A model generated the notes under the pieces. That model was given only the letters and a program-made list of their open reading frames with translations, was not told the DNA's origin and did not search any database. Of a stretch of DNA of 13,115 nt, positions 1-13,115 are shown in pieces. The DNA lies in the NCBI GenBank assembly GCA_032249135.1, contig JAVVGL010000038.1:1-13115 (forward strand), in the 5' to 3' direction. The DNA comes from Candidatus Calescibacterium sp. Lineage in GTDB: Bacteria; Calescibacteriota; Calescibacteriia; Calescibacteriales; Calescibacteriaceae. A program made the translations under genes and the position numbers. Each line of letters starts with the position of its first letter. The first letter of the stretch is position 1.

Positions 1-1
1 A

Positions 2-1477
2 GCTTACTATGAAAAAGTAGACTATGGCAAAGCTATTGAAGACTTTACAAAAGCTATTAAGTTGAAACCTGATGAGGCTGGTTTTTATTACCTGCGTGGC
101 AACGCTTACTATTGGAAAGAAGAATATGAAAAAGCTATTAAGGATTTTAACAAAGTTCTTGAACTTAATCCGAGCTATAAGGAAGCACGGGAAGCAAAGA
201 AGGAAGTTGAGAACTTAATAGAATATAAAAAGAAAAGTTTAGTAAAATCTGGAAACGGATCAAGCTATGAAGAAGCACGGAAAGCGAAGAAAGAAGTTGA
301 GAGCTTAATAGAATCTAAAAAGAAAAGCTTGATAAAGTCTGAAGACGGGAGAAAAGCTTTTAAAGTCTCTTTTCTGCTCATGCTATTTCTGACATCAGTT
401 CCAATGTTGGTAATTTTGGGCACTAAAGATGATTGGCAACAGAGATTTATAGAGACTATCAAAGAAAATCAGGAGAAGATTAGAATTTCGCAATTGCCAG
501 ATAATCTATCTTCTCTGGATGAGGTAATAGATTATGTTATATATCAGCTTCCGGATCACAAGATCAAGGGAGCTGCGCTTCCGCGCGATACTAATGCTCA
601 TTTTATTATAGCTCTTGTATCTTGGTGGTGTTGGATGGTATTTTTTAGTATATTTCTTTCGTCAAGTAGCAATGAAGAGAACTGGGCTATTCTATCTTCG
701 CTGTTTACAGCTATTTCGGGAATTCTTATTCTTCTTGTTATCCAATTGCTTGTACTCGAGATATATAAAAGTGGGATTTGGAAAACATTAAAAATCTTTA
801 GGGGAAGATACTCTATTTTTGGCCTTATTCTTTATTTCATTGGTTTTTCATATTATGGTGCGCTGGACCCAGAATCTGGGTTTATCAAAAGCTTTATCGG
901 TTTTACCTTTGGAGTAGGGCTGTGTGAGGAACTTGTGAAACTTATACCAGTAGTTTGGTTAATGAAAAAGGCTTTCAAAAGAGAAGAAATATCTCATTTG
1001 CCTGGGATATTGCTGGTTGGTTTAGCAAGTGGAGTTGGTTTTGGAGTAGCAGAAGGAATTATGTATAGCGCTCAATTCTACAATGGTATACATGGTTGGG
1101 ATGTTTATTGGGTCCGTTTTGTCACATGTGTTGCCCTTCATTCAACTTGGACAGGAATTGCAGTTCTTAGTTTTTTTTTGTTTTTATTCAGGGAGGAAGA
1201 AACAACTAAAAACGAAAAGGCGAAAGATGAGAAGAATAAAGAAGATGAGAAGAAAGAAAAATCTCATATATCAATAGAGGAACAGTCTGATATGGGATTC
1301 AAGGAGATTATGTTTATGTTAGCAATTTTTTCTGTTGTAGCTATTATTTTGCATGGTTTATATGATACCCTTTTGAAAAAAGGTGAAGATTTTTTGGCTT
1401 TTGTTGTTGCTATCACTACTTTTGTGGTGTTTTATTACTTATTGAGTAAAATGTATGAGAAAGAAAATCAAATTTAG
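2..1477 (+). CDS. TPR-repeat-containing PrsW-family (M82) intramembrane protease, 5'-partial
   Basis: The frame is open from base 2 (AYYEKVDYGKAIEDFTKAIKLKPDEAGFYYLRGNAYY...), so the TTG at 62 is probably not the true start. TPR consensus (YYLRGNAYY..EYEKAIKDFNKVLELNP) precedes multiple TM helices. PrsW motifs: EExxK (CEELVK), GFxxxE (GFGVAEG), LHSTWTG, HxxxD (LHGLYD). Confidence 0.85.
   Translation, partial: AYYEKVDYGKAIEDFTKAIKLKPDEAGFYYLRGNAYYWKEEYEKAIKDFNKVLELNPSYKEAREAKKEVENLIEYKKKSLVKSGNGSSYEEARKAKKEVESLIESKKKSLIKSEDGRKAFKVSFLLMLFLTSVPMLVILGTKDDWQQRFIETIKENQEKIRISQLPDNLSSLDEVIDYVIYQLPDHKIKGAALPRDTNAHFIIALVSWWCWMVFFSIFLSSSSNEENWAILSSLFTAISGILILLVIQLLVLEIYKSGIWKTLKIFRGRYSIFGLILYFIGFSYYGALDPESGFIKSFIGFTFGVGLCEELVKLIPVVWLMKKAFKREEISHLPGILLVGLASGVGFGVAEGIMYSAQFYNGIHGWDVYWVRFVTCVALHSTWTGIAVLSFFLFLFREEETTKNEKAKDEKNKEDEKKEKSHISIEEQSDMGFKEIMFMLAIFSVVAIILHGLYDTLLKKGEDFLAFVVAITTFVVFYYLLSKMYEKENQI
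173..352 (+). repeat. Imperfect 90-bp (30-aa) in-frame tandem duplication in the TPR-PrsW linker
   Basis: agctataaggaagcacgggaagcaaagaaggaagttgag... at 173 and agctatgaagaagcacggaaagcgaagaaagaagttgag... at 263. Peptides: SYKEAREAKKEVENLIEYKKKSLVKSGNG / SYEEARKAKKEVESLIESKKKSLIKSEDG. Confidence 0.9.
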
Positions 1478-1569
1478 GAATTAAGAAAAAAAGAAAAAAC
1501 AGGTTAGTTCCGCTTTTTAGTAAAGCTTTCATTAATTTTTTTTCAGGGGTTTAAACTTAAAATATTGGT

Positions 1570-2673
1570 ATGAGAAAAGTTGAAGAAATACTTAAAGACC
1601 TTCCTGAAAATATAAGGGGACCGATATTTGAGGCATTTATTGCTTTCAGAGATGATGTCATACTCAAAGAAATAAGTGAGGTAAAGCAGGAAATAAATAG
1701 GGTATGGAAAGCAATAGAAGAACTTGCATTGGCGCAAAAGAGAACTGAACAAATAATTCAAAGACTTGTGGAAGAACATGAGAAATTAAAAGAGGAGGTC
1801 AGGAAGCTTGCGGAGGCTCAGGCGAGGACCGAGCAGCAGATTCAAAGGCTTGCTGAGGAGCAAGAGAGGTTGAGGGATGAGGTTAGAAAACTTGCCGAAG
1901 CTCAGATGAGAACCGAGCAACAGGTTCAAAAGCTTGCGGAGGCTCAGGCAAGGACCGAGCAACAGGTTCAAAAACTTACAGAAGCCCAAGCAAGAACAGA
2001 GCAACAGCTTCAAAGACTTGCAGAAGAACATGAGAAGTTAAAGGTTGAAGTTAGAAAACTTGCTGAGGCACAAGCGAGGACCGAGCAGCAACTTCAGAAG
2101 CTCGTGGAAGACCATGAGAAGCTAAAAGAAGAGGTTAGAAAGCTCACTGAAGCTCAGATGAAAACAGAGCAACAGGTTCAAAAACTTGCGGAGGAACACG
2201 AAAAACTGCGAGAGGAAGTTAGGAAGCTTGTTGAAGCTCAATCAGAAACTGAAAGGAGACTCCAAATGCTTATTAAAGAGCACGAGAAAACGAGAGAAAA
2301 TTTGGCTGGACTTTCTCATACCGTGGGTCATTTGCTTGAAGATAGAGCTATAAAATCTTTGCCTAAAATTCTTAAAAAATATGGAATTGAAGTTGTTGGA
2401 GAACTTTCAAGAGATTATATTGAAGTTGGTGGAGAATATATTGAAGTAAATATTTACGGTAAAGCAATTAAGGATGGCAAAGAATATATATTGTTGGGAG
2501 AAGCGAAAACGAGGGTTTCAATAAAAGCAATTGATGAATTTATTGAAAAGTGTGATCTCATATCAAAGGAAGCAATCAAGGTCTTTATCTCTTACATTTT
2601 CCCACCTCATATTAAAGAATATGCAAAAGAAAAACGAATAATTTTGATCCCTTCATATCAACTTGAACTTTAA
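1570..2673 (+). CDS. Long coiled-coil repeat protein with C-terminal PD-(D/E)XK nuclease-like domain (DUF3782-like architecture)
   Basis: 367-aa ORF with heptad repeats LAEAQARTEQQVQK / LAEEHEKLKEEVRK, then VGHLLED, EVNIYG and LLGEAK, matching a restriction-endonuclease-like fold (motif II Asp appears as Asn). Confidence 0.75.
   Translation: MRKVEEILKDLPENIRGPIFEAFIAFRDDVILKEISEVKQEINRVWKAIEELALAQKRTEQIIQRLVEEHEKLKEEVRKLAEAQARTEQQIQRLAEEQERLRDEVRKLAEAQMRTEQQVQKLAEAQARTEQQVQKLTEAQARTEQQLQRLAEEHEKLKVEVRKLAEAQARTEQQLQKLVEDHEKLKEEVRKLTEAQMKTEQQVQKLAEEHEKLREEVRKLVEAQSETERRLQMLIKEHEKTRENLAGLSHTVGHLLEDRAIKSLPKILKKYGIEVVGELSRDYIEVGGEYIEVNIYGKAIKDGKEYILLGEAKTRVSIKAIDEFIEKCDLISKEAIKVFISYIFPPHIKEYAKEKRIILIPSYQLEL
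1723..2310 (+). repeat. Coding tandem array of 14 x 42-bp (14-aa) units of two types
   Basis: A = LxEAQxRTEQQxQK and B = LxEEHEKLxEEVRK, in the order ABABAAABABABAB. Near-identical DNA recurs, e.g. aagcttgcggaggctcaggcRaggaccgagca near 1804 and 1930. Confidence 0.9.
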
Positions 2674-2758
2674 AAATTAGAATGAAAAAAGTAAAGGTAA
2701 TTTAAGATGAAAAAGAATCTTGAAAAATTATGTCATTTTTTGAAATAATAATAATAAT

Positions 2759-2764
2759 AAGGAG
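2759..2764 (+). promoter_or_regulatory. Shine-Dalgarno site for the CDS at 2771
   Basis: AAGGAG 6 nt before the ATG, preceded by (AAT)5. Confidence 0.75.
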
Positions 2765-2770
2765 ATAACT

Positions 2771-4819
2771 ATGAAGAATTCACTAAAATTGTTAGATAGC
2801 TTAGCGTCTTATTTAATTTCACGAGTTCTTTACAGAACAATATTATTTGCAACAATTCTTTTATTTACTGGTTTGGGTTGTGGAAGGAAAGTTGATAATG
2901 ATTTCATATTAGTAATAGCCGATAAAAATTCTTCTGATATTATTGAGAAGTTTATAGATGATTTGTCAGAAAAGGTTAAGCTTAAAGTATGTGATAAGCA
3001 ATCAGAATGTGTTGAGGATGGAGCGATAAATGTTATCATAGAAAAATTAGATTGCAAAGAGTGTTATCAAATAACAGAAAGAGACGGAAGTTTTGTAGTG
3101 AAAGGAGGCTTCCCGGCTGGAATAATTTACGGACTTACTCATTTCCTTGAACTTGCAGGTTTTCGTTTCCCACATCCGTTTTATAGTATTATCCCTCAAA
3201 AAATAAATAATTTGAAACAAGAGGTTTCTCGGATCAATTCAAAAGTTTTTGAACCTATTGTTGAGCAGAGGGGACTTCAATTACATATCTTACATCCAAT
3301 AGAGGCTCTATTTTCTTTCTGGATACCTTCTCCTGAGGGCGAAAAAGAAGCATTTAAAATTGTAAAGTGGATAGCAAGACAAAGAGGCAATTATATTCAG
3401 CTGACAGCTCTTGATAATATAAAAAAAGATGAAGAGTATACCAGATGGAAAGAACATATGAAAAAGATTTTAGATTACGCGCACAAAATAGGTGTAAAAG
3501 TTGGAATTAATATTCAGATTTTTTCTGTATCAAGCTTTCAGAGAGCTTATGTGGTCAGTACGAAACAAGATTTGGAAAAGATTTTATCTCTTCCGTTTGA
3601 TGCTGTGAATATTTCTTTTGGTGAATTTATAGGAACTAATCCTGACGAATTCATACAAAAAGTAAATGAGGTGTATGAATGGATAAAAAGTTTCAACAAA
3701 AATATTGAGGTTTCTGCTACTATACATGTTGGAAATTTTGAAAATCTTTGGGTAGAATATAAAGGTGAAAGGCTACTTTATTACTTCCTTGTAAAGTATG
3801 CAAATGAAGATATAGTTCCTTGGGTTCATACAGTAATGTTTTACAATCTCTTTGATGATGCTGGCGGAGCATATAATCATGATAATTTTTCTCTTCACAG
3901 GGAGTTTTTGTTTGAAAGAATAAAGCAAGAAAAAAAAGTTAATTACTTCCCAGAAACAGCTTATTGGATAGCCTTTGATAATTCCGTCCCGCTTTATCTG
4001 CCCATTTATATTGTTTCAAGGTGGATTGATATCAAGAACATAACAGAAGCAGGTAAGCTTTATTCTCATGTCATATTTTCGTCTGGTTGGGAATGGGGTT
4101 ATTGGCTTTTTGACTATTTATCTTTACGATTTTCTTGGTCTGTTCCTGCTACCTGGGTTGAACCATTATCTGAACTATTTCCGAATTGGGGAAAAGATAT
4201 AATAAAAAAACTCGGAGAAATTCAGTATGATTATCTGATAAGAAAAAGGCTAACTCCTTATATTGTTGGTGAGGATTTCTATGTTCATCTTGGATGTCAA
4301 AGCAAAGTTTTCTTTTCTCAACCTTGTAGGATAACATTTGAAGAATTAGTCAAAATGTCTGATGCTGAAAAGCAGAGATTTGAAAAAAATGTTCTTGAAC
4401 CCCTTGCTAATATGGAAAAAGAAATTGGAACTCTTTTGGGAAATTTCCCTGCTGATTCAAAATCTGATCCTCTTATTTTGGAGTTAAAAGATGGATTAGA
4501 TATAACATATTTGAGAGTAAAATTTATGAGAAACCTTTATGAAGCTATATTTTTGCACTCTTATGGTAAAGAATTTTCTGAAAAGCTTGATACTTCTGTG
4601 CAGATTCTCAATAAAGCAGATGAAGTTGTAAAAAGGCGAGCTAAGAATTTCTTTTATCCTCGTCCAGAGCTTCTTATAGAAAATGTAGAAAATCCAACTA
4701 TATACCAGTTTGGCTATTTGAAACAGGCTCATAATTTGTGTTTTTGGAGAAGGGAGCTTGGGCAGGCTAAGTTAGCTTTGGGTTTATCAGCAGAAACTAT
4801 TCCAAGTTGCATAGATTAA
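2771..4819 (+). CDS. Putative lipoprotein, uncharacterised; N-terminal GH20/GH67-like domain followed by a probable TIM-barrel
   Basis: 682-aa ORF with a good RBS and a hydrophobic stretch ending LLFTGLGC (lipobox-like). YQIT...VVKGGFPAGIIYGLTHFLE...GFRF.HP followed by RGLQLH resembles the hexosaminidase-like N-terminal domain and the first barrel strand. The CDS is secure; the function is tentative. Confidence 0.6.
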   Translation: MKNSLKLLDSLASYLISRVLYRTILFATILLFTGLGCGRKVDNDFILVIADKNSSDIIEKFIDDLSEKVKLKVCDKQSECVEDGAINVIIEKLDCKECYQITERDGSFVVKGGFPAGIIYGLTHFLELAGFRFPHPFYSIIPQKINNLKQEVSRINSKVFEPIVEQRGLQLHILHPIEALFSFWIPSPEGEKEAFKIVKWIARQRGNYIQLTALDNIKKDEEYTRWKEHMKKILDYAHKIGVKVGINIQIFSVSSFQRAYVVSTKQDLEKILSLPFDAVNISFGEFIGTNPDEFIQKVNEVYEWIKSFNKNIEVSATIHVGNFENLWVEYKGERLLYYFLVKYANEDIVPWVHTVMFYNLFDDAGGAYNHDNFSLHREFLFERIKQEKKVNYFPETAYWIAFDNSVPLYLPIYIVSRWIDIKNITEAGKLYSHVIFSSGWEWGYWLFDYLSLRFSWSVPATWVEPLSELFPNWGKDIIKKLGEIQYDYLIRKRLTPYIVGEDFYVHLGCQSKVFFSQPCRITFEELVKMSDAEKQRFEKNVLEPLANMEKEIGTLLGNFPADSKSDPLILELKDGLDITYLRVKFMRNLYEAIFLHSYGKEFSEKLDTSVQILNKADEVVKRRAKNFFYPRPELLIENVENPTIYQFGYLKQAHNLCFWRRELGQAKLALGLSAETIPSCID

Positions 4820-4847
4820 TGGAATATATAAGTTTCAGATGGATTAA

Positions 4848-6077
4848 CTATATATTGAAGGGAGAGCAACAAATCTGAGATTTGCAATTTAAGCTTTGAC
4901 ATTCTTCATCTTTTGTGCAGCTTTCTCCTTTTGGTTTCCTATTTTTTGTATCTGATGGTTTTTTGCATACTTTTTCTTCTTTGTCGCATATAAGTCCGAG
5001 ATCGCATACATAATCATTTCCACATTTTTCTCCTTCTTTTTTTAATTTTTTGCATACTCCTTCATCTAGGGAGCAATATGATCCTATATCACAGCTATCA
5101 CCTTCTTTACAATTTTCACCTTCTTTTTTTCTTGGAGAGCAGATGAAATTTTGAGCTGTTTGCTTTCCTCCCTCTTTTTCTTTCATTTCTTTGCAGTATA
5201 ATCCTACATTACATATTTTATATATTCTGTTTCCTGCAAATATTCCACAACTTTCACCTTCCTCTGATGTAGCTAATATTGTACATAATTTATCAGCGCT
5301 ACAAAGAATTTCACAATCCGATGAATCTACGCAACTTTCTCCCTCTTGTTTTAGTCTTGTGCATTTATATCTTATGCATGCAAGATCCTCCTTACATTGG
5401 AAATCATTATTACAAAATTTTCCCTCGTCCCCGGGTTCAGTACAAATACCATTCAGGCATACAAGATTAGGGCTGCATTCTCTATCTTCTTGGCAAACCT
5501 CTTCCTTTTGTTTGGTTATTTTGCATGTTCCTGGACATCCTCCATCACATATAAGTCCCGGTGAGCATTCTAAATCGTGATAGCAAGTTTCCCCTTCTTT
5601 AAGTTTTCCATAAAATGAAGTTTGTAGTTCCATCAGATTTTTCTGGATTAGTATCAGAATTGACTTTGGTTTTTTTCTTATCTCTTTGCAATCTTGATTC
5701 AAGAGTTCTTCGGTTTTTTTTATTATTTCATATGCTTTTTTACCATCGTATTCTATTGTTTTTCTCTCGGTGATATATCTTGTAATCTCATAAACATAAG
5801 TCAAGCAGTTCTGATAAAATTCTGCAATCTTATTCCTCTCTGAATTGTATGCTTTTTCTATATTTTCACCAAAACACAGAGAGAATTTATTGATTCTGGT
5901 CTTGTGTATTTCCAGTGCTTGGTTGCAGAAATCTTCTAATTTTATTTCATTTCTTACTTCATTCTCTTTTGGTTTATTTTTATCTTTGCATACTATAAGA
6001 GATAAGAGTAGAGGTAAACATAAGAAATGCTTTAAGAATGCTCCATATTTTCTATTCGTCATAGATTTTTTCCTCAT
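4848..6077 (-). CDS. Cysteine-rich repeat secreted/lipoprotein (Dickkopf-N/EB-like 4-Cys modules)
   Basis: 409 aa with a basic N-terminus and LPLLLSLIVC. I count 40 Cys. Eight modules of about GExC-x5-C-x3-5-C-x4-6-C occupy the C-terminal part (one module has longer loops). Confidence 0.8.
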   Translation of the reverse strand: MRKKSMTNRKYGAFLKHFLCLPLLLSLIVCKDKNKPKENEVRNEIKLEDFCNQALEIHKTRINKFSLCFGENIEKAYNSERNKIAEFYQNCLTYVYEITRYITERKTIEYDGKKAYEIIKKTEELLNQDCKEIRKKPKSILILIQKNLMELQTSFYGKLKEGETCYHDLECSPGLICDGGCPGTCKITKQKEEVCQEDRECSPNLVCLNGICTEPGDEGKFCNNDFQCKEDLACIRYKCTRLKQEGESCVDSSDCEILCSADKLCTILATSEEGESCGIFAGNRIYKICNVGLYCKEMKEKEGGKQTAQNFICSPRKKEGENCKEGDSCDIGSYCSLDEGVCKKLKKEGEKCGNDYVCDLGLICDKEEKVCKKPSDTKNRKPKGESCTKDEECQSLNCKSQICCSPFNI

Positions 6078-6198
6078 TTTACAATTTTTCGGATTTTTTT
6101 AATTTCTTAATCTCTGTTTTTCTTTTTTCTATACTTTTCTATTTTTTTCTATTTTATTTTATTTTTACTTATTTGCATTATTTTTTTTCTGTTTTTGT

Positions 6199-6206
6199 AA
6201 GGAGGT
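6199..6206 (+). promoter_or_regulatory. Shine-Dalgarno site for pckG
   Basis: AAGGAGGT 7 nt before the ATG at 6214. Confidence 0.8.
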
Positions 6207-6213
6207 AAATTGG

Positions 6214-8100
6214 ATGAATGAATTTTTAGCAAAGTTGGAGAATATTTTGAAGGAAAGTGAATTCAAAAAACTTGTGAAAATAAAAAACAAGGAAGTTCAT
6301 AAATTTATTCTTGACGCAATTGAGCTGTGTTCTCCGAAAGATGTTTTTATATGCTCTGATACCCCTGATGAAATAGCTTATATAAAGAATATGGCTGTTG
6401 TGTCTGGTGAGGAAAAGATGCTTCTTACTCCGGGACATACATATCACTTTGACGGAATTTATGATCAAGGTAGAGATAGAGCTGTGACAAAATTTTTGGT
6501 TCCAAAAGGAGAGAAATTATCGCAAAAACTTAACCAAATAGATAGAGATGAAGGATTAGACGAAATACTAAATCTTTTCAGAGAATCTATGCAAGGAAAA
6601 ACTATGATTGTTCTCTTTGCTTCTTTGGGACCTGTAAATTCTGTGTTTTCAATACCGTGCGTTGAGTGTACGGATAGTTGGTATGTTGCTCATTCAATAA
6701 ATGTTCTATATCGTGGTGGATATGAGATGTTTGTGAATTTGCCAGAAAATGGAGTTGATATTTTCAAGTTCTTGCATTCAGCCGGAGAGCTTGATGAAAA
6801 TCAAGTTTCAAAAAATTACGATAAAAAAAGAATCTATATTGATTACATAACCAACACAGTTTATTCTGTAAATACCCAGTATGCAGGAAATTCTGTTGGT
6901 TTCAAAAAACTTGCTTTAAGGCTTGCTATAAGAAAAGCTCACAAAGAAGGTTGGCTTGCAGAACATTTTATGCTGATAGGAGTTAATGGTCCTGGTGGTA
7001 GAAAAACCTATTTTGCCGGAGCTTTTCCATCAGGATGTGGTAAAACCTCTACTGCTATGCTTCCGGGAGAAAGCATATTATCTGATGATTTAGCTTTTGT
7101 AAGAAATATAGATGGTGTAGCGAGAGCTGTGAATGTTGAAAAAGGTATATTTGGTATAATACAAGATGTCAATCCAAAAGATGATCCTCTAATTTGGGAG
7201 GTTCTGAACTCCCCGGGCGAGATTATATTCAGTAATGTTTTAGTGAAAGACGGAAGAGCTTTGTGGCTTGGTATGGGGTGTGAATTGCCGAAAGAAGGAA
7301 TAAACTTTTCAGGATACTGGTATGAGGGCAAAAAAGATAAGGATGGAAAAGAAATCCCTCCTGCTCATAAAAACGCAAGATATGCTGTTTCTCTAAAAGC
7401 TCTGAAAAACTGCGATGAAAACCTTGAAAATCCAGATGGAGTTGAACTCAAAGGTATTATGTTTGGCGGAAGAGATTACAGAGCTTATGTTCCGGTTCAG
7501 CAAAGTTTTGATTGGGCTCACGGTGTTGTGGCTTATGGAGCTTCTTTGGAAACAGAAACTACATTTGCTGTTGTGGGAGAGGAGGGAAAATACGAAATCA
7601 ATATTATGAGCATACAAGATTTTGTCTCAATACCTCTTGGCACTTATGTGAAAAATTACATTGAATTTGGTAAAAAACTCAAAAAAGCCCCATTGATTTT
7701 TGGAGTTAATTACTTTCTTAAAGATTTAGATACAGGAGAATTTCTAAATTCAAAATTAGATAAACACGTTTGGGTAAAATGGATGGAGTTAAGAGTTCAC
7801 GGTGAAGTTAAAGTAAGAAAAACCCCAACAGGACTTATTCCTCTCTACGAAGATTTAGCTTATCTTTTCAAATCAGTTTTGAAGAAAGATTACTCAAAGC
7901 AAGATTATATCAAACAATTTACGATAAGAGTTCAGGAAAATCTTGCGAAGATTGAAAGAGCGAAAAAATTCTGGGAAAATGAGGAGGATGTTCCCGGTGA
8001 AATTTTTGATGTTTTGGAGGAGCAAAAACAAAGGCTCATTTCGGCTCAAAAGAAATTTGGAAACTACATTTCTCCTGAAAATTTTGAAATAGTAGATTGA
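6214..8100 (+). CDS. pckG: Phosphoenolpyruvate carboxykinase (GTP)
   Basis: 628 aa. YAGNSVGFKKLALR, GWLAEHF, P-loop AFPSGCGKTSTAM, kinase-2 SDDLAF, NVEKGIFG, AHKNARY, FGGRD, FDWAHGV, IFGVNYF. Confidence 0.96.
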   Translation: MNEFLAKLENILKESEFKKLVKIKNKEVHKFILDAIELCSPKDVFICSDTPDEIAYIKNMAVVSGEEKMLLTPGHTYHFDGIYDQGRDRAVTKFLVPKGEKLSQKLNQIDRDEGLDEILNLFRESMQGKTMIVLFASLGPVNSVFSIPCVECTDSWYVAHSINVLYRGGYEMFVNLPENGVDIFKFLHSAGELDENQVSKNYDKKRIYIDYITNTVYSVNTQYAGNSVGFKKLALRLAIRKAHKEGWLAEHFMLIGVNGPGGRKTYFAGAFPSGCGKTSTAMLPGESILSDDLAFVRNIDGVARAVNVEKGIFGIIQDVNPKDDPLIWEVLNSPGEIIFSNVLVKDGRALWLGMGCELPKEGINFSGYWYEGKKDKDGKEIPPAHKNARYAVSLKALKNCDENLENPDGVELKGIMFGGRDYRAYVPVQQSFDWAHGVVAYGASLETETTFAVVGEEGKYEINIMSIQDFVSIPLGTYVKNYIEFGKKLKKAPLIFGVNYFLKDLDTGEFLNSKLDKHVWVKWMELRVHGEVKVRKTPTGLIPLYEDLAYLFKSVLKKDYSKQDYIKQFTIRVQENLAKIERAKKFWENEEDVPGEIFDVLEEQKQRLISAQKKFGNYISPENFEIVD

Positions 8101-8103
8101 AGA

Positions 8104-8802
8104 ATGGTACTTTTTGTTGTTGCAACTCCGATTGGGAATCTCAAAGATTTGAGTGAAAGAGCAAAGGAAGTAATAAAAGAAGCAGATTTAGTAGTTTGTG
8201 AATCAAGAGAAAGAGCTTTAAAGATTCTGAACTTTTTGGGCTTAAAAAAAAGATTGATCTATATGCCAGCTCCTCGGGAGAAAGATTTAGCTCGGAAAAT
8301 AGCTGAGGAAATAAAAAATGAGAATTTGAAAGCTGTTCTTTTAGTGTCTGCTGGAACCCCTGGATTATCTGATCCCGGTTCTTTTCTTGTAAGGGAGTGT
8401 AGGGAAATAGGAGTTCCTGTTATTCCAGTTCCAGGACCTTCTGCACTTTCTTCGGCAGTTTCTGTTTCGGGCATTCCTATTCAGCGGGTTTTGTTTTTAG
8501 GTTTTTTACCAAAAAAGGGAAGAAAAAGTTTCCTTTCAAAAGTAAAAGATGCATTAGATAAATTACCTTTTTCTTTATCTGTTGTTATTTTTGAATCTCC
8601 TCACAGAATATCTGAGACATTGAATGATATTCAAGACGTTTTCGGAGATATAAATTTGCTCTTGGCACGGGAGATGACAAAAGTTCATGAAGAATACATT
8701 TTCGGAAATGTTGATTTTGTGAAAAGAATGATTGAAAAAAAAGGAAAATTGAAAGGAGAGATAACTTTGGTCTTGGAACTTACTAAGTTCGGAGCTGATT
8801 GA
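8104..8802 (+). CDS. rsmI: 16S rRNA (cytidine(1402)-2'-O)-methyltransferase RsmI
   Basis: LFVVATPIGNLKDLSERA, AGTPGLSDPG, PVPGPSA, FLGFLP, FESPHRI, AREMTKVHEE, KGEITLV. Starts 3 bp after the pckG stop. Confidence 0.92.
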   Translation: MVLFVVATPIGNLKDLSERAKEVIKEADLVVCESRERALKILNFLGLKKRLIYMPAPREKDLARKIAEEIKNENLKAVLLVSAGTPGLSDPGSFLVRECREIGVPVIPVPGPSALSSAVSVSGIPIQRVLFLGFLPKKGRKSFLSKVKDALDKLPFSLSVVIFESPHRISETLNDIQDVFGDINLLLAREMTKVHEEYIFGNVDFVKRMIEKKGKLKGEITLVLELTKFGAD

Positions 8803-8837
8803 ATAGTAATTGTTTTATTATTGCCTATTTTGAGTTT

Positions 8838-9154
8838 TTATTTTTTTGAATTTGAGTTTTTGAGAAATTTGACGAAATCTTCCCAAGTTTTTGCTTTTAT
8901 TGCCTCTGTTTCTATCTTTTTCAGATGATTTATATCTTCTACTTTTTCTAAAAGGCTTTTGATTTGCTTTGCTTTTGAGCTACTGAATTTTACTTGGACA
9001 ATTCTCAAAATTGCTTCTTTAAGACCCTTTACAATCCCCTTTTTTCACCTTCTTTAAGACCTTTTACGAGACCTCTTTGTTCTCCTTCTTTTAACCCTTC
9101 TTCTTTTCCCCATTTGTAAAGGAAAGTTTTTCTTATGTCAACTTGTATTGGCAT
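8838..9154 (-). pseudogene. Second (orphan) Rpn C-terminal cassette, RpnS-like, with a single-base frameshift; absent from the ORF track
   Basis: ATG at 9154 gives MPIQVDIRKTFLYKWGKEEGLKEGEQRGLVKGLKEGEKRG. One base is missing in the A6G4 run (9036-9045), giving a premature TAA at 9029-9031. The shifted frame continues IVKGLKEAILRIVQVKFSSSKAKQIKSLLEKVEDINHLKKIETEAIKAKTWEDFVKFLKNSNSKK* (TAA 8838-8840). It would be 105 aa if repaired and is colinear with 9171-9443. Confidence 0.88.
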
Positions 9155-9173
9155 AGGTTTAACCTTTATTTCA
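9138..9173 (-). repeat. 36-bp perfect direct repeat, copy 2 (head of the orphan cassette)
   Basis: Minus strand TGAAATAAAGGTTAAACCTATGCCAATACAAGTTGA, identical to 9427-9462 (period 289 bp). Confidence 0.95.
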
Positions 9174-9443
9174 CTTGTGGTTTCTGAATGTTTTGATAAA
9201 ATCATCCCAGTTCTTTGCTTCTATTATTTTCCTCTTTATTTTTTTGAGGTAATTTACATCGTCAACTTTTTCCAAGAGAGTTTTTACCTCTTTTGTCTTT
9301 GATTTGCCAAACTTGATTTGAACATCTAATAAAATTGCCTCCTTCAAGCCCTCTTGTTTCCCTTTTTCAAATCCTCTCTTTTCTCCTTCTTTCTCTCCCC
9401 ACTTATAAAGAAAGGTTTTTCTAATATCAACTTGTATTGGCAT
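9171..9443 (-). CDS. Rpn C-terminal module as a stand-alone small protein (RpnS-like, DUF4351-like), 90 aa
   Basis: ATG preceded by the SD-like AAGGT. Contains the GxxEGxxxG low-complexity repeat typical of Rpn/YhgA tails, then a helical domain (KFG...LLEKV...LKKI...AKNWDDF). Confidence 0.75.
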   Translation of the reverse strand: MPIQVDIRKTFLYKWGEKEGEKRGFEKGKQEGLKEAILLDVQIKFGKSKTKEVKTLLEKVDDVNYLKKIKRKIIEAKNWDDFIKTFRNHK

Positions 9444-9462
9444 AGGTTTAACCTTTATTTCA
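9427..9462 (-). repeat. 36-bp perfect direct repeat, copy 1 (internal to the Rpn gene)
   Basis: Same sequence as 9138-9173. In the repaired Rpn frame it encodes EIKVKPMPIQV. Confidence 0.95.
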
Positions 9463-10051
9463 ATATCAAATAAACCTGCTAAAAAGCTTATGCTATCTAT
9501 ATATTTTATGATATGATTTTTTCTTCGTTTTTCAAAATTTCTACAATTCTCTTTTTGACTTTCTTTATTATCTTGGGTTTATCTTTGAATTTCCCTGCCA
9601 AAATCCCTAAAATAACTTCTGCTGGTTTTTCGCTTTTTATGAAAACAGCCGGGGCTATTTTCTTCATGTCTAAAACTTTGTATTTCAAGGCAAGTTTAGG
9701 AGTTTTGTACTCTGATGGAGGAGGATTTCCTTTACCAACAAATAAAACTATTTGCGTTGGTTCTTTTTTATATTTTTCTGATATTGCATAGTAATAGCGA
9801 AACATCCTGAGTGGCAAAGTTTTATCTTGTTGAGCTTGGATTTCAACCTGAATTATCTCTCCGTCAGCCTCAACTAAAATATCAGGGCGAAAAGTCTTTA
9901 CCAAACTTATTTCTGCAGATATAACTCTGACTTTTTTACCTATTTTTTTACCTATTGCTAAGTAATAAATCGTTCCTATTGCTTCGGAGAAAATCTCTTT
10001 TAAAATTGTATCAAACCTTTTTAACTCTTTTTTGTATTCCTTTCTCTTTTC

Positions 10052-10093
10052 TCTCTGTTGCTTTTTTATCTTTCTCTGTTGCTTTTTTATCTT
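10052..10093 (-). repeat. Perfect 21-bp tandem duplication at the Rpn N-terminus (KIKKQQR x2)
   Basis: tctctgttgcttttttatctt at 10052-10072 and 10073-10093 (+ strand). Confidence 0.92.
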
Positions 10094-10302
10094 CTTCATT
10101 ATTCAAGTTTTGCAGTTTTACTTGAAGCTCAAAATTAAATTTTACTTATTTGGTGACTTGCAAGATTTCTTCTCTTAGAAATCTAATTCCTAATGATTGT
10201 GACAAAGTAAAGAGAGAAGTGTTTTCAGATTTTCAAATCAAGCGAAACAGGAAAGATAATGAAAAAAAGAAAGAGATTTTCTTAAGAAAAAAATAAAGAT
10301 TT

Positions 10303-11145
10303 TCAGTCAATTTCTGCGAAAGCGTTCTTTAAGACTTCTTCTCCATTTTGGTTTATTGCAACTATATCAATTCTTCTTTTTCCTATTTCTGGTTTTTCTT
10401 TGCTCTCATAACCTATGAAGGTAAGTTCATCTTCCGGTAGGACTATTTTTGAGAACCTACATCTTACTCTTTTTATTTTTGTTGGATCTCCTTCACATAC
10501 ATTGTCTATTACAGATTTTGTAGCGAACGCCATCGTACACATACCGTGCAGTATTATTGTTGGAAATCCCATAGCTTTTGCGAAGTTTTCATCTGTGTGG
10601 ATTGGGAACCTATCTCCTGAGCCTTCTGCATATTTTATAGGCTGATCTTTTGCTACTTTGATTTTCCACTCATAAAGCTTTTGACCAAACTCTTTCTTCT
10701 CTTCTTCTTTCTTCTTTTCTCCTCCGCCTTTTTTCTCTCCTCTTATAAAGTATAAATGATATCCTTCTCCTATTTTTTCACCTTTTGTTTTGTCATATTG
10801 TTCCGCTTTTACAAGAAAAATAGTTCCGGTTTCTTTCTGTTCTATCCCCAGAAATTTCGTCTTTATGCCTATCTTGTCTCCCGCCTTTATTAATCTAAAA
10901 ATTCTTGAATCCTGCTCACCATGAACAACTCTCATAGGATTGACCCCTTGATTTACTTCATCATCAAAAAGAACTTTTCCTGTGAAAGGTATAGATAAAG
11001 CCGTTGCATAAAGTGGTGGAGCTTTTACCCCATCTTTTAAAAATACAGGATTGTTTTCACTTATACCTTCCATATATTTTTTTATACTCTCCTCCGTTAC
11101 TTCCACAATTTCCTCTGGATATTCTTTTATTACATTTTCTGCCAT
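10303..11145 (-). CDS. MaoC-family double-hotdog dehydratase / (R)-specific enoyl-CoA hydratase
   Basis: N-terminal hotdog (APPLYA, VVHGEQ) and C-terminal hydratase-2 motif YAEGSGDRFPIHTDENFAKAMGFPTIILHGMCT, plus RFSKIVLPED. Strong RBS. Confidence 0.9.
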   Translation of the reverse strand: MAENVIKEYPEEIVEVTEESIKKYMEGISENNPVFLKDGVKAPPLYATALSIPFTGKVLFDDEVNQGVNPMRVVHGEQDSRIFRLIKAGDKIGIKTKFLGIEQKETGTIFLVKAEQYDKTKGEKIGEGYHLYFIRGEKKGGGEKKKEEEKKEFGQKLYEWKIKVAKDQPIKYAEGSGDRFPIHTDENFAKAMGFPTIILHGMCTMAFATKSVIDNVCEGDPTKIKRVRCRFSKIVLPEDELTFIGYESKEKPEIGKRRIDIVAINQNGEEVLKNAFAEID

Positions 11146-11152
11146 TATACTA

Positions 11153-11160
11153 ACCTCCTT
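11153..11160 (-). promoter_or_regulatory. Shine-Dalgarno site for the MaoC gene
   Basis: AAGGAGGT on the minus strand, 7 nt before the ATG at 11145. Confidence 0.8.
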
Positions 11161-11286
11161 ATTATTATTTTATTTTTTTTATTTTTAACCTTTTAATCTG
11201 CAAGTTATATTTTAGCTTTTTGCAAGATTTCAGGCTATTTCAAAAGATATTCAAGGAAAACGCAGAAAGTAAAAAATTTCAATTTC

Positions 11287-11811
11287 ATGGGTAAAGCCGC
11301 TACTGGCGAGTTAGCTTTACCAGGAGGTTTCACATCAGAAACGGCTCAAAATTTAGTAAAAGTTCTAAAAAACGGAAGAGAAAAATTTGATTACTCAAAA
11401 GAAGACAATGAAATTCATATTTCTGAAAGACCTGATAAATTTGATGTATCTAAAATTGTAAATTTTCCGGGGTTGTTCATGCCCACCAGAATAAAAGAAA
11501 TTCCACTTCCTGATTTTGCGAAGATAGATGTTTGCAAATTTTTTGGAGCGAAAAAAATTCAACCAAAACCTATAAGAGATTTACTTTTACTGTATGAACT
11601 TGTTTAAGACGGAGTAGATGGTCTCCCTTATCTACTATCTGCGGCAGTTATATTTGAATCAGGAGCGACGACTATATCCATTAAGTTTTCTTCTTCTACT
11701 TATATTTTGAGCGCACCAAGTCAGTATCAAAGCATAATTATAGAACACAGAATTGCTGACTTTCTAAATTTCCCACTGCTACTTTTTGATTCCTCATCAC
11801 CGAATAAATAA
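11287..11811 (+). pseudogene. Hypothetical ORF (11287-11607) with in-frame continuation past the stop; possible gene remnant
   Basis: 106-aa ORF without a clear RBS. After TAA at 11605-11607 the same frame stays open for 67 codons (DGVDGLPYLLSAAVIFESG...) to TAA 11809-11811. No family recognised. Confidence 0.35.
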
Positions 11812-12160
11812 GGTTTTCTGGGAAAAACTATCGGTCGGTCTTTTGGTTTCAAAAAACTGGGTCAAAGGTGATTATGTTGTAAGAGCTAAGGGAAAAAGGT
11901 ATTAGTTCATTTGCAATAGCATTCAAAGAATATGCAGAAAAATAGTTAGCATAGCTAATAAAAATTTCAAAACTCCATTTTCCATAACATACACTCAGGA
12001 ATCCCTTGAAATTTCAAGCAGAAAAAAAAAGAAAAAAAAATCAGAAAGAATAGTTGAAAATGCTAACAAGAGGCTATTTTTTCAGGAAAAAAACGCTCAA
12101 AAATAACAAAACTCAAAAATTATGATTATATTATTAGATAAAAATTGTAAATTTATGATT

Positions 12161-12170
12161 GAGGAGGAGG
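12161..12170 (+). promoter_or_regulatory. Shine-Dalgarno site for the S8 peptidase gene
   Basis: GAGGAGGAGG 7 nt before the ATG at 12178. Confidence 0.8.
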
Positions 12171-12177
12171 GGAAAAT

Positions 12178-13115
12178 ATGCTGAAAGCAAAAAAATTGTG
12201 CGGAAGTTTATCTTATGGTTGTCTTTTTTTCACAATCTTTATCTTCACATCCTTGATTTTTTCAAACTGTGCAAGAAAAAAAGAAAAAGAAAAAAATCAA
12301 CTTGTTGTTATAAAAGACGAATTTGAAAAAGTTGAAGAATTTGTTTTAGATGAAAAAACAGGTCAGGAGTTCGCAAAAAACCAAATCTTAATCTACATCG
12401 TAGCAAATAGTAAATCAGAGTTAGAAGAGAAGAAAACGAAAATTTCTCAGATTATAACAGCCAAAAAAGGAGAATTCTCAGTTTTGGGAGAGATTGAGTT
12501 TTTGTCTGAAAAAGAAAAAGTAGGAATTTTACTGCAAGCAAAGGTTCCAGCCGGAACACCAGAGGAGATAAAGCAAATTGTTTCAGAGCTGCGGAATTTT
12601 GATGGGAGTATAAGAGCGTTTCCGAATATGAGAATGAAACCATCAGCGATTTTGGGTGGATATGTTCCTCTTGACCCTCTATTTGATAGCTGGGATGAAA
12701 CCCCGGGAGGAAATAACTGGCATTTTGAAGCTGTTAATATGCCAAAACTTTGGAATCTGGAAACTCGTGGGAAAGTTCCAGTTGCGGTTATAGAATTTGG
12801 GATAAGAAAGCATGAGGATTTGGAATATGATTTGAGAAGGGGTGTTGATGGTGAAGGAGCAGACTGGGCGCAAAATCACGGAGTGAGCGTTTTGGAGTTT
12901 TAGGGGCAGTAGGGAACAACTCAAAAGGAATAGCAGGTGTAATTTGGAGAGGGGATATAAAGGTGTATGTTATAGATGGGAGTTTGAGTTCTTTGGTTCA
13001 GAGCATAGTTTTAGCTCTGCAAGACAAGGCAAAAGTAATATTATTTGCTGGGGGATTAGGATGGGGAAGTATAAGTCCCGAAGGAAATCCAGAAGCTGAG
13101 GCGATTTTGGAGTAT
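12178..13115 (+). pseudogene. S8 (subtilisin-like) serine peptidase, probable lipoprotein; frameshifted as sequenced and 3'-partial
   Basis: Signal/lipobox-like LIFSNC, a propeptide-like region, DP....W, VAVIEFG..HEDL, then HGVSV. One base is missing at the T4 run 12890-12893. The shifted frame from 12894 reads GVLGAVGNNSKGIAGVIW...AKVILFAGG, restoring the HGxxVxGxxGAxxNNxxGIAGV motif, and stays open to the window end. Confidence 0.85.

Follow-up and report, generated by a model that had tools for sequence, protein, structure and literature searches.

The closest described counterparts of the locus reported here are the rpn genes of Escherichia coli, which occur in several copies per genome (rpnA-E) and were analysed by Zhong et al. 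2023 (PNAS 120:e2307382120, PMC10400941). As set out in the part of that article on which all our statements about E. coli draw, these genes encode an internal tail protein, RpnS, that varies in four-residue repeats starting 8-20 residues after its methionine, and a difference of a single repeat abolished neutralisation. Separately encoded copies of the tail lie downstream of E. coli rpn genes (rpnESs, also known as ypaA, and rpnCSs); these cluster with their own upstream tail, implying local duplication, and have disappeared where a deletion occurred or where the N-domain became fused to the copy behind it. The same article cites EcoR124I and EcoR124II, the specificity of which changes with the number of TAEL repeats. 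Beyond that study, a commentary on it (PMC10400984) and one unrelated genome report, no later work on Rpn tails was found in the literature. Here we describe a gene on the minus strand of a 13,115-nt stretch of DNA from Candidatus Calescibacterium sp. (NCBI GenBank assembly GCA_032249135.1, contig JAVVGL010000038.1, positions 1 to 13,115), which was analysed at its whole length and is called the window throughout. In this gene a predicted, Rpn-like nuclease N-domain is followed by two different C-terminal tails, each introduced by the same short stretch of sequence, the head.

We consider it likely that the gene is a member of an expanded Rpn-like family in which alternative tandem tails are swapped at their heads, that the copy in the window has been inactivated, and that the family functions by analogy with its E. 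coli counterpart. It resembles E. coli RpnL/RpnS/RpnSs in its predicted PD-(D/E)XK N-domain, in its small and variable C-terminal tail and in the putative internal start ahead of that tail, which varies in four-residue units inside a long first helix that is the predicted dimer interface. Also as in E. coli, extra tail copies lie just downstream of the gene and are lost by deletion or fusion, and there are many copies per genome that lack ends like those of an insertion sequence. In contrast to E. coli Rpn, the family is known from sequence alone, with its function assigned by analogy, and its sequence similarity falls below every curated cut-off. Spare tails do not cluster with their own upstream tail (none of five), arrays reach three heads, tails are shuffled across ~27 paralogs, and tandem tails differ in class and stand in one order or the other depending on the locus, although the supplement of PMC10400941 may hold similar cases.

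Three other systems offer partial parallels. In EcoR124I and EcoR124II, too, specificity is retuned when a helix gains or loses four-residue repeats, but these are the specificity subunit of a restriction enzyme, without alternative cassettes. In polymorphic toxin loci of the cdiA/rhs type the main gene is followed by orphan modules for C-terminal toxin and immunity, each with a conserved junction stretch for recombination. The locus in the window likewise has displaced modules behind a main gene and a junction sequence that permits recombination onto it; however, the variable module of cdiA/rhs is the toxin with its own immunity gene, whereas here the variable part is the presumed oligomerisation or antitoxin tail and the nuclease is constant. 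The silent cassettes of pilE/pilS are partial copies with conserved sequence that donate the variable part to the expressed gene, and partial copies sharing conserved sequence would act as donors here as well, but nothing in the family points to a mechanism of switching that is dedicated or frequent.

The finding falls within a known kind of system. Part of the novelty suggested in a preliminary description of the window had been anticipated, as tail copies behind E. coli rpn genes, and the deletions and fusions by which they are lost, had been reported before (PMC10400941); what differs, relative to that part of the literature, is a remote and lineage-specific family with heterologous spare tails in both orders, up to three heads and tail exchange.

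Alternative tails at one site and across the genome

The arrangement first noticed in the preliminary description, an N-domain and two homologous but diverged C-terminal modules behind a common 36-bp head, was confirmed at its positions on the minus strand (8838-10099; Table 1). The N-domain open reading frame (ORF) is assigned, from sequence and model, to an Rpn-like PD-(D/E)XK nuclease domain followed by a helical linker. Tail 1, of a class here called alpha, begins MPIQVDIRKTFLYKWG; its first 16 residues are identical in tail 2, which is of a second class, beta. The two tails form a direct repeat of 102 nt with 80% identity and a spacing of 289 nt, and the linker of tail 2 holds three four-residue repeats more than that of tail 1 and is 1 base short of 31 codons. 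When the 36-mer was searched across the 2.1-Mb genome, only two exact copies were returned, both at this locus (9462-9427 and 9173-9138).

Four metagenome contigs carry the same flanking genes, RsmI-like, MaoC-like and PEPCK, with 96-98% amino acid and 96-97.5% nucleotide identity, and differ in what lies between them. L097 has the order N-alpha-beta with both tail ORFs intact, while L116 has N-alpha followed by a deletion of ~230 nt and a decayed 3' third of beta. In L067 and L069 the N-domain is directly fused to beta by a join located in or before the 36-nt head, as head-to-head recombination would give, and a protein on record from seven contigs (P0176, 326 aa) is the same N-beta fusion. 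These cases, in which the N-domain is joined to the tail 2 type, are the deletion form of about 289 bp that had been predicted for the locus. Because the one site carries N-alpha-beta, N-alpha and N-beta alleles, recombination at heads removes the resident tail. Intact counterparts of tail 2 are present in L097, L067 and L069 and in proteins P0203 and P0198. The alleles at the site also differ in linker length (19 or 23 residues in alpha; 31, 35 or 39 in beta), and the gene is 2-4x more diverged than its surroundings, with the N-domain 88-91% identical as compared with 96-97.5% for the flanks.

The locus appears from sequence comparison to be one copy of a greatly expanded, lineage-specific, remote Rpn-like family with ~27 paralogous loci. 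The genome it comes from (G000; 2.1 Mb, 51 contigs, 87% complete) has 33 matches to the N-domain and 48 to the tail, corresponding to N-domains at ~25 loci and main tails at ~27; the alignment comprised 17 open frames, 292-331 codons long, and the paralogs are 52-88% identical to each other. N-domain matches number 20 in the congeneric genome G001 and 2-9 in other genomes of the same taxonomic family, with none in 24 genomes of other taxonomic families. More than 1,000 related proteins are found in public metagenomes, many of them labelled 'predicted transposase YdaD' by JGI. Some public records label members 'FliH' or 'YuzE', and the EGxK repeat region draws weak NCBIfam FliH matches (E down to 2e-6); as these are located on the repeats they were taken as repeat or low-complexity likeness, and the names look like repeat-driven mis-annotation.

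Nine heads in this genome stand directly behind a complete tail and are termed spare heads. Two junctions recur, one in which ...FRNHK-TGA runs directly into the head and one in which ...KNKI-TAG is followed by a slightly longer head copy; the type of junction formed by the second head and the tail 1 stop in the window recurs behind seven spare heads, and a frame-shifted reading, SET(I/T)xE, precedes the head. Of the five spare cassettes that could be aligned, none clusters in the tail tree with the tail upstream of it. For tail 2 of the window the nearest tail is the main tail of C36 (88.9% nucleotide identity), and for the spare cassette of C36 it is the main tail of C9 (87.6%), which shares a well-supported clade with the window's tail 1. 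On the basis of this cross-matching the cassette order is alpha-beta at C38 and beta-alpha at C36. Alpha-tailed genes are spread over three or more N-domain clades with good support, and their placement in a single clade is rejected by the AU test (p 7e-6), the group having been defined from the tail tree and not before the trees were seen. The alpha tails in several N-domain clades and this rejection thus indicate that tails have been exchanged among N-domains, the tail and N-domain trees being in conflict. Among 79 related metagenome loci, which as best matches to a beta-tailed query are a biased sample for head counts, 50 have one head, 21 have two and eight have three. In agreement with the preliminary description, the tails are thus alternative cassettes that follow a common head and vary in number and order. 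In a paralog at G000:C20:16887-17879 the body of the tail is of the alpha type and its end (...WDDFIKFLKNSNPKNKNSKGK) of the beta type, as would result if two tandem tails had been joined by a deletion from one WxDF site to the other.

The Rpn-like tail and a model for its role

The strongest likeness of the family to Rpn lies in the tail. The linker between WG and (A/S/G)I(L/F/S) measures 7, 11, 15 and so on up to 39 residues and equals 3 modulo 4 in 27 of 27 tails, with the four-residue repeats starting 17 residues after the methionine. This internal methionine (Met212) is invariant in the paralog alignment and its ATG is present in all 26 main heads, 18 of which also have a Shine-Dalgarno (SD)-like (A/G)AGG(T) motif (AAGGT or GAGGT); the 3' end of the 16S rRNA, which would give the anti-SD, was not found in the genome itself, nor did a search for RNA runs return any. 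A homodimer model of tail 1 scored 0.72 against 0.01 for the best control, passing a mark reached by 20 of 30 proteins solved as pairs and by one of 23 solved as single chains, with partner pLDDT (predicted local distance difference test) of at least 82 and agreement between runs in at least 93% of contacts. The modelled interface covers residues 9-44, in register along the repeat-bearing first helix. This pass may partly reflect likeness to the solved RpnAS dimer and to that extent would not be independent evidence. A Foldseek search of the tail model against the PDB gave nothing at E up to 0.001, the RpnAS crystal not being among the listed rows.

For the N-domain, the resemblance is more distant. 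The residues D67, E80, Q82, Q84, D86 and K87 are invariant in 17 of 17 paralogs and all present in the window ORF, and the conserved acidic motif D...E-x-Q may correspond to the RpnA core, in that hhalign aligns RPD and VEIQ with SDV and IEHQ of E. coli RpnA, albeit weakly (E 0.02, probability 2.4%); residue 63 of RpnA is the one we take to be catalytic. The window N-domain matches TIGR01784, the Rpn family model, below threshold at 18 bits (9776-9898). In an AlphaFold2 model (pLDDT 69.6), residues ~20-141 align to PD-(D/E)XK nucleases, namely NucS (Z 6.8; rmsd 3.3, 103 aligned), SdaI (Z 6.5), VC1899 (6.2), Bax1 (6.0), Can2 (5.7), Card1 (5.4) and an XisH-like protein (5.3), and Foldseek pairs the model with NucS at a probability of 1.00 but an E of 0.07. 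The nearest named clusters in the ESM Atlas are DUF4351 or 'Rpn family' (scores 0.96-0.97). Taken at face value, sequence and model are consistent with a remote relative of Rpn that is not a member by curated thresholds. The preliminary assignment as an Rpn nuclease thus holds in the sense of a remote likeness, carried by the D...ExQ motif, the sub-threshold TIGR01784 match and the nuclease-like model, and fails in that no curated HMM (hidden Markov model) cut-off is reached.

Based on these features we posit that each family member would combine a PD-(D/E)XK-type nuclease N-domain and a helical linker with a small C-terminal tail that starts at the invariant internal methionine and has a long first helix with variable four-residue repeats. 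Homologous recombination from head to head, together with gene conversion with paralogs, would delete, insert or exchange tails, so that either tail can come to follow a given N-domain. If the family works like RpnL/RpnS/RpnSs of E. coli, the long protein would be a toxic DNase, and the tail translated from the internal ATG would pair with the tail of the long protein and block it. Tail class and repeat number would then determine which tails pair, and spare tails would be either displaced former tails or extra free-standing antitoxin genes.

Several results weigh against this reading, in which the nuclease activity and toxicity of the long form, its neutralisation by a tail made from the internal ATG and protection against phage are all predicted from the E. 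coli counterpart. All 26 matches to TIGR01784 in the genome fall within the family, yet at 16.2-28.9 bits against a cut-off of 52.1, and no match to this model at E up to 1e-10 was found in 31 genomes. The HMM comparison with PDDEXK_2, Transposase_31 and DUF4351 envisaged in the preliminary description turned out negative: Pfam gave nothing significant for the four pieces from the window or for five intact paralogs, neither PF04754 nor PF12784, the best being PF04754 (Transposase_31) at E 0.052 in one of the five paralogs, and PF14261 (DUF4351) had no match at E up to 1 in the whole genome. Profile searches against PDB sequences, with the full length and with the tail, returned no meaningful match, and with hhalign the tail profile matched neither RpnA nor RpnE of E. 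coli. Model confidence is middling (pLDDT 69.6 and 71.5) and the fold Z-scores are in a range that the tool calls common. The genes around the unit are housekeeping genes (PEPCK, RsmI-like, MaoC-like) rather than a defence island, and either N-alpha-beta or N-beta may have come first at the site. The definition of the AU group and the sampling of the 79 loci, given above, belong with these points.

Spare tails are in differing states of preservation. Two of the nine spare heads lead an intact ORF (C4:101037, and C29:11797 with a GTG start), three lead full-length tails with one or two frameshifts (C38, C36, C49), two lead truncated tails (C5, C9) and two are heads only (C1, C4:33063); further deletion remnants of tails lie behind other family genes. 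The ratio of nonsynonymous to synonymous change (dN/dS) is 0.14-0.49 between spare and main tails, in the same range as between main tails (0.13-0.40), and all four substitutions specific to a tail 2 contig from metagenome run X5 are synonymous. On account of these two observations the spare cassettes had been coding until recently, and they may have been so as resident or as spare tails alike. By the E. coli analogy tail 2 is unlikely to act on a toxin that carries tail 1, because it has three more repeats and is of the other class, and in E. coli a difference of one repeat abolished neutralisation. It would be either a tail displaced from the N-domain it once followed or the partner of a different paralog or of the fused form.

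A possible but in our view doubtful alternative is that selection maintains the spare tail as a free-standing antitoxin gene, as with rpnESs/ypaA, and that it is not a passive displaced relic, the break in the window strain being a recent accident. Tail 2 is intact in L097 as a 131-codon open frame, stand-alone ORFs are on record (P0203, 113 aa, from two contigs; P0198, 130 aa), an ATG and an SD-like motif are kept at 9154, and the synonymous X5 changes and the dN/dS values would also fit such a gene. However, low dN/dS can date from time spent as a resident tail, intact ORFs follow so few of the spare heads in the genome itself while deletion remnants occur elsewhere, and the difference in class and by three repeats argues against action on its own neighbour, although a paralog could be the target. 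We regard as improbable the wider proposal that heads are the working sites of a cassette-shuffling system, in which a library of tails (at least three classes, with 1-9 repeats each) and the downstream spares would be frequently re-paired with ~27 N-domains, re-setting antitoxin-toxin matches, insulating copies or outpacing phage inhibitors, and in which Rpn-like nucleases might start the recombination.

Neighbourhood of the unit and state of the window copy

In the congeneric genome G001 the RsmI-like and MaoC-like genes, which share 91% and 95% amino acid identity with those of the window, are ~50 nt apart and the 1.5-kb unit between them is missing. No target-site duplication or terminal (inverted) repeat was seen at the unit boundaries, and homology among the paralogs extends from ~50 nt ahead of the ATG to 10-35 nt past the last stop. 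It is very improbable that the unit is an insertion sequence and its protein a transposase, with the many copies and the empty site reflecting transposition. Such an origin would account for ~27 loci in 2.1 Mb, for the orthologous G001 site without the unit and for the JGI label 'predicted transposase', but it is contradicted by the absence of the expected ends and by the short reach of homology among copies, and with only 52-88% identity the paralogs are not recent copies. Zhong et al. 2023 (PMC10400941) reached the same negative conclusion for rpn genes, as far as the part of the article used here goes.

Table 1. Positions of the features of the locus within the window
Feature	Position	Strand	Description
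N-domain ORF	9506..10099	-	197 codons; from the ORF list; premature TAA made by the frame break
Head copy 1	9427..9462	-	exact 36-nt repeat; SD-like AAGGT; internal ATG 9443-9441
Tail 1 (alpha class)	9171..9443	-	intact 90-codon ORF from the internal ATG; RpnS-like; 19-residue repeat linker
Head copy 2	9138..9173	-	identical 36 nt; overlaps the tail 1 TGA stop (9171-9173)
Tail 2 (beta class, spare cassette)	8838..9154	-	ATG 9154; 41 codons, frame break, 68 codons in another frame; stop 8838-8840
Whole unit (leader, N-domain, two tails)	8788..10282	-	~1.5 kb; no counterpart at the orthologous site in the congeneric genome G001
5-bp tandem duplication ATCAT ATCAT	9508..9517	-	puts N-domain and tail 1 out of frame
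G4 run with 1-nt deletion	9036..9039	-	splits tail 2

Two frame breaks interrupt the window copy. The 5-bp duplication is missing in eight of eight close paralogs and in four of four orthologous metagenome alleles. The G4 run is G5 in all three orthologous alleles that keep the stretch and in the X5 contig (one extra letter behind 9035). An identical 286-nt contig (8843-9128) with the tail 2 break occurs in runs X1, X2 and X3, which belong to three studies, one of them possibly of the source sample; a 138-nt contig of run X5 spans the passage from the tail 1 stop to the tail 2 head, and the truncated 197-aa product is recorded from seven contigs. The contigs of X1-X5 are uninformative on the 5-bp duplication, which lies in a stretch common to ~26 paralogs. 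Given the comparison with paralogs and orthologs, the X1-X3 contigs and the recorded 197-aa product, both breaks are real alleles rather than sequencing errors, and they do not look programmed. For the first break, slippage in the A6 run was considered and ruled out, as the alignment shows a 5-bp duplication. In the window strain only the 197-codon N-domain ORF and the 90-codon tail 1 ORF remain open. As the 5-bp duplication interrupts the long ORF and the 1-nt deletion the beta tail, the window copy has most likely been inactivated recently.

It is extremely improbable that the breaks are programmed, by ribosomal frameshifting or homopolymer phase variation, and that full-length protein and tail 2 are still made. 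The tail 2 break does sit in an A6G4 run, and G4 versus G5 varies between strains; however, the first break is a 5-bp duplication and not a slippery site, G4 is short for phase variation, the X1-X3 contigs are all of one form (although minor variants can be hidden in contigs), and most paralogs as well as all four orthologous alleles are plainly in frame. Nor is it credible that the tandem tails or breaks are assembly artefacts of a repeated gene family in metagenome reads, for although the family is repeated ~26-fold, depth over 9465-9535 is ~26x that of the flanks and several family copies lie at contig ends, the identical contigs in three runs and the bridging contig in a fourth, the truncated product on record, the same architecture in independent metagenome contigs with the same flanks, and the assignment of an odd joint (9496>9969) to another locus all speak against it. 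This joint, seen in X1-X3, was considered as a deletion form of the window locus and ruled out; the 16 letters inserted at the joint are present at a single place in the genome, a remnant paralog at C1:15850. The degenerate family remnant at G000:C1:15562-15984, with two heads and an inverted N-domain fragment, has an internal deletion that joins N-domain residue ~45 to the pre-head region and explains the joint.

Further features of the window were observed beside these. The A run at 8841, ahead of the stop of tail 2, has one base more than that of X5 and of the four orthologous alleles, and shortens the tail end from ...NSNSKNKNSK to ...NSNSKK. The best promoter-like match of the region, at 9508-9535 on the minus strand (TTGAAA, 16 nt, TATCAT; 10/12), lies just upstream of the tail 1 start, its -10 hexamer created by the 5-bp duplication; a scan of the region found five promoter-like matches against 4.2 expected and one terminator-like match against 0.7 expected, no excess over chance. 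At the unit boundary (8776-8802, compared with L056, G001:C113) the RsmI-like protein ends ...ELTKFGAD in the window and ...ELTNLKGF where the unit is absent, so that the indel has reshaped the C-terminus of this neighbour. A 409-aa protein encoded at 4851-6077 (minus strand) has a Pfam Dickkopf_N cysteine-rich match (E 2e-8, 34.8 bits, cut-off 25), unusual for a bacterium. Four ORFs of the window, all on the plus strand, are without a Pfam match at E up to 1e-5: 1570-2670 (367 aa), 2771-4816 (682 aa), 11287-11604 (106 aa) and 12178-12900 (241 aa).

Origin of variable tails and downstream copies

Among the questions left by Zhong et al. 2023 (PMC10400941), in the part of the article used here, are the origin of the variable Rpn tails and of the downstream copies, and the role of those copies. 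The lineage of the window is a natural experiment on both. One chromosomal site has been caught in three states, with both tails, with one tail, and with the other tail fused to the N-domain, and one small genome holds ~27 copies with tails exchanged between unrelated N-domains. It follows from the states of the site and from this exchange that a downstream copy can be a different tail and not just a duplicate. The sets of alleles now available could serve to establish the rules of cross-neutralisation, tail class as against repeat number. When recombination takes place at a short conserved head, the long protein receives another tail and with it, presumably, another specificity of pairing.

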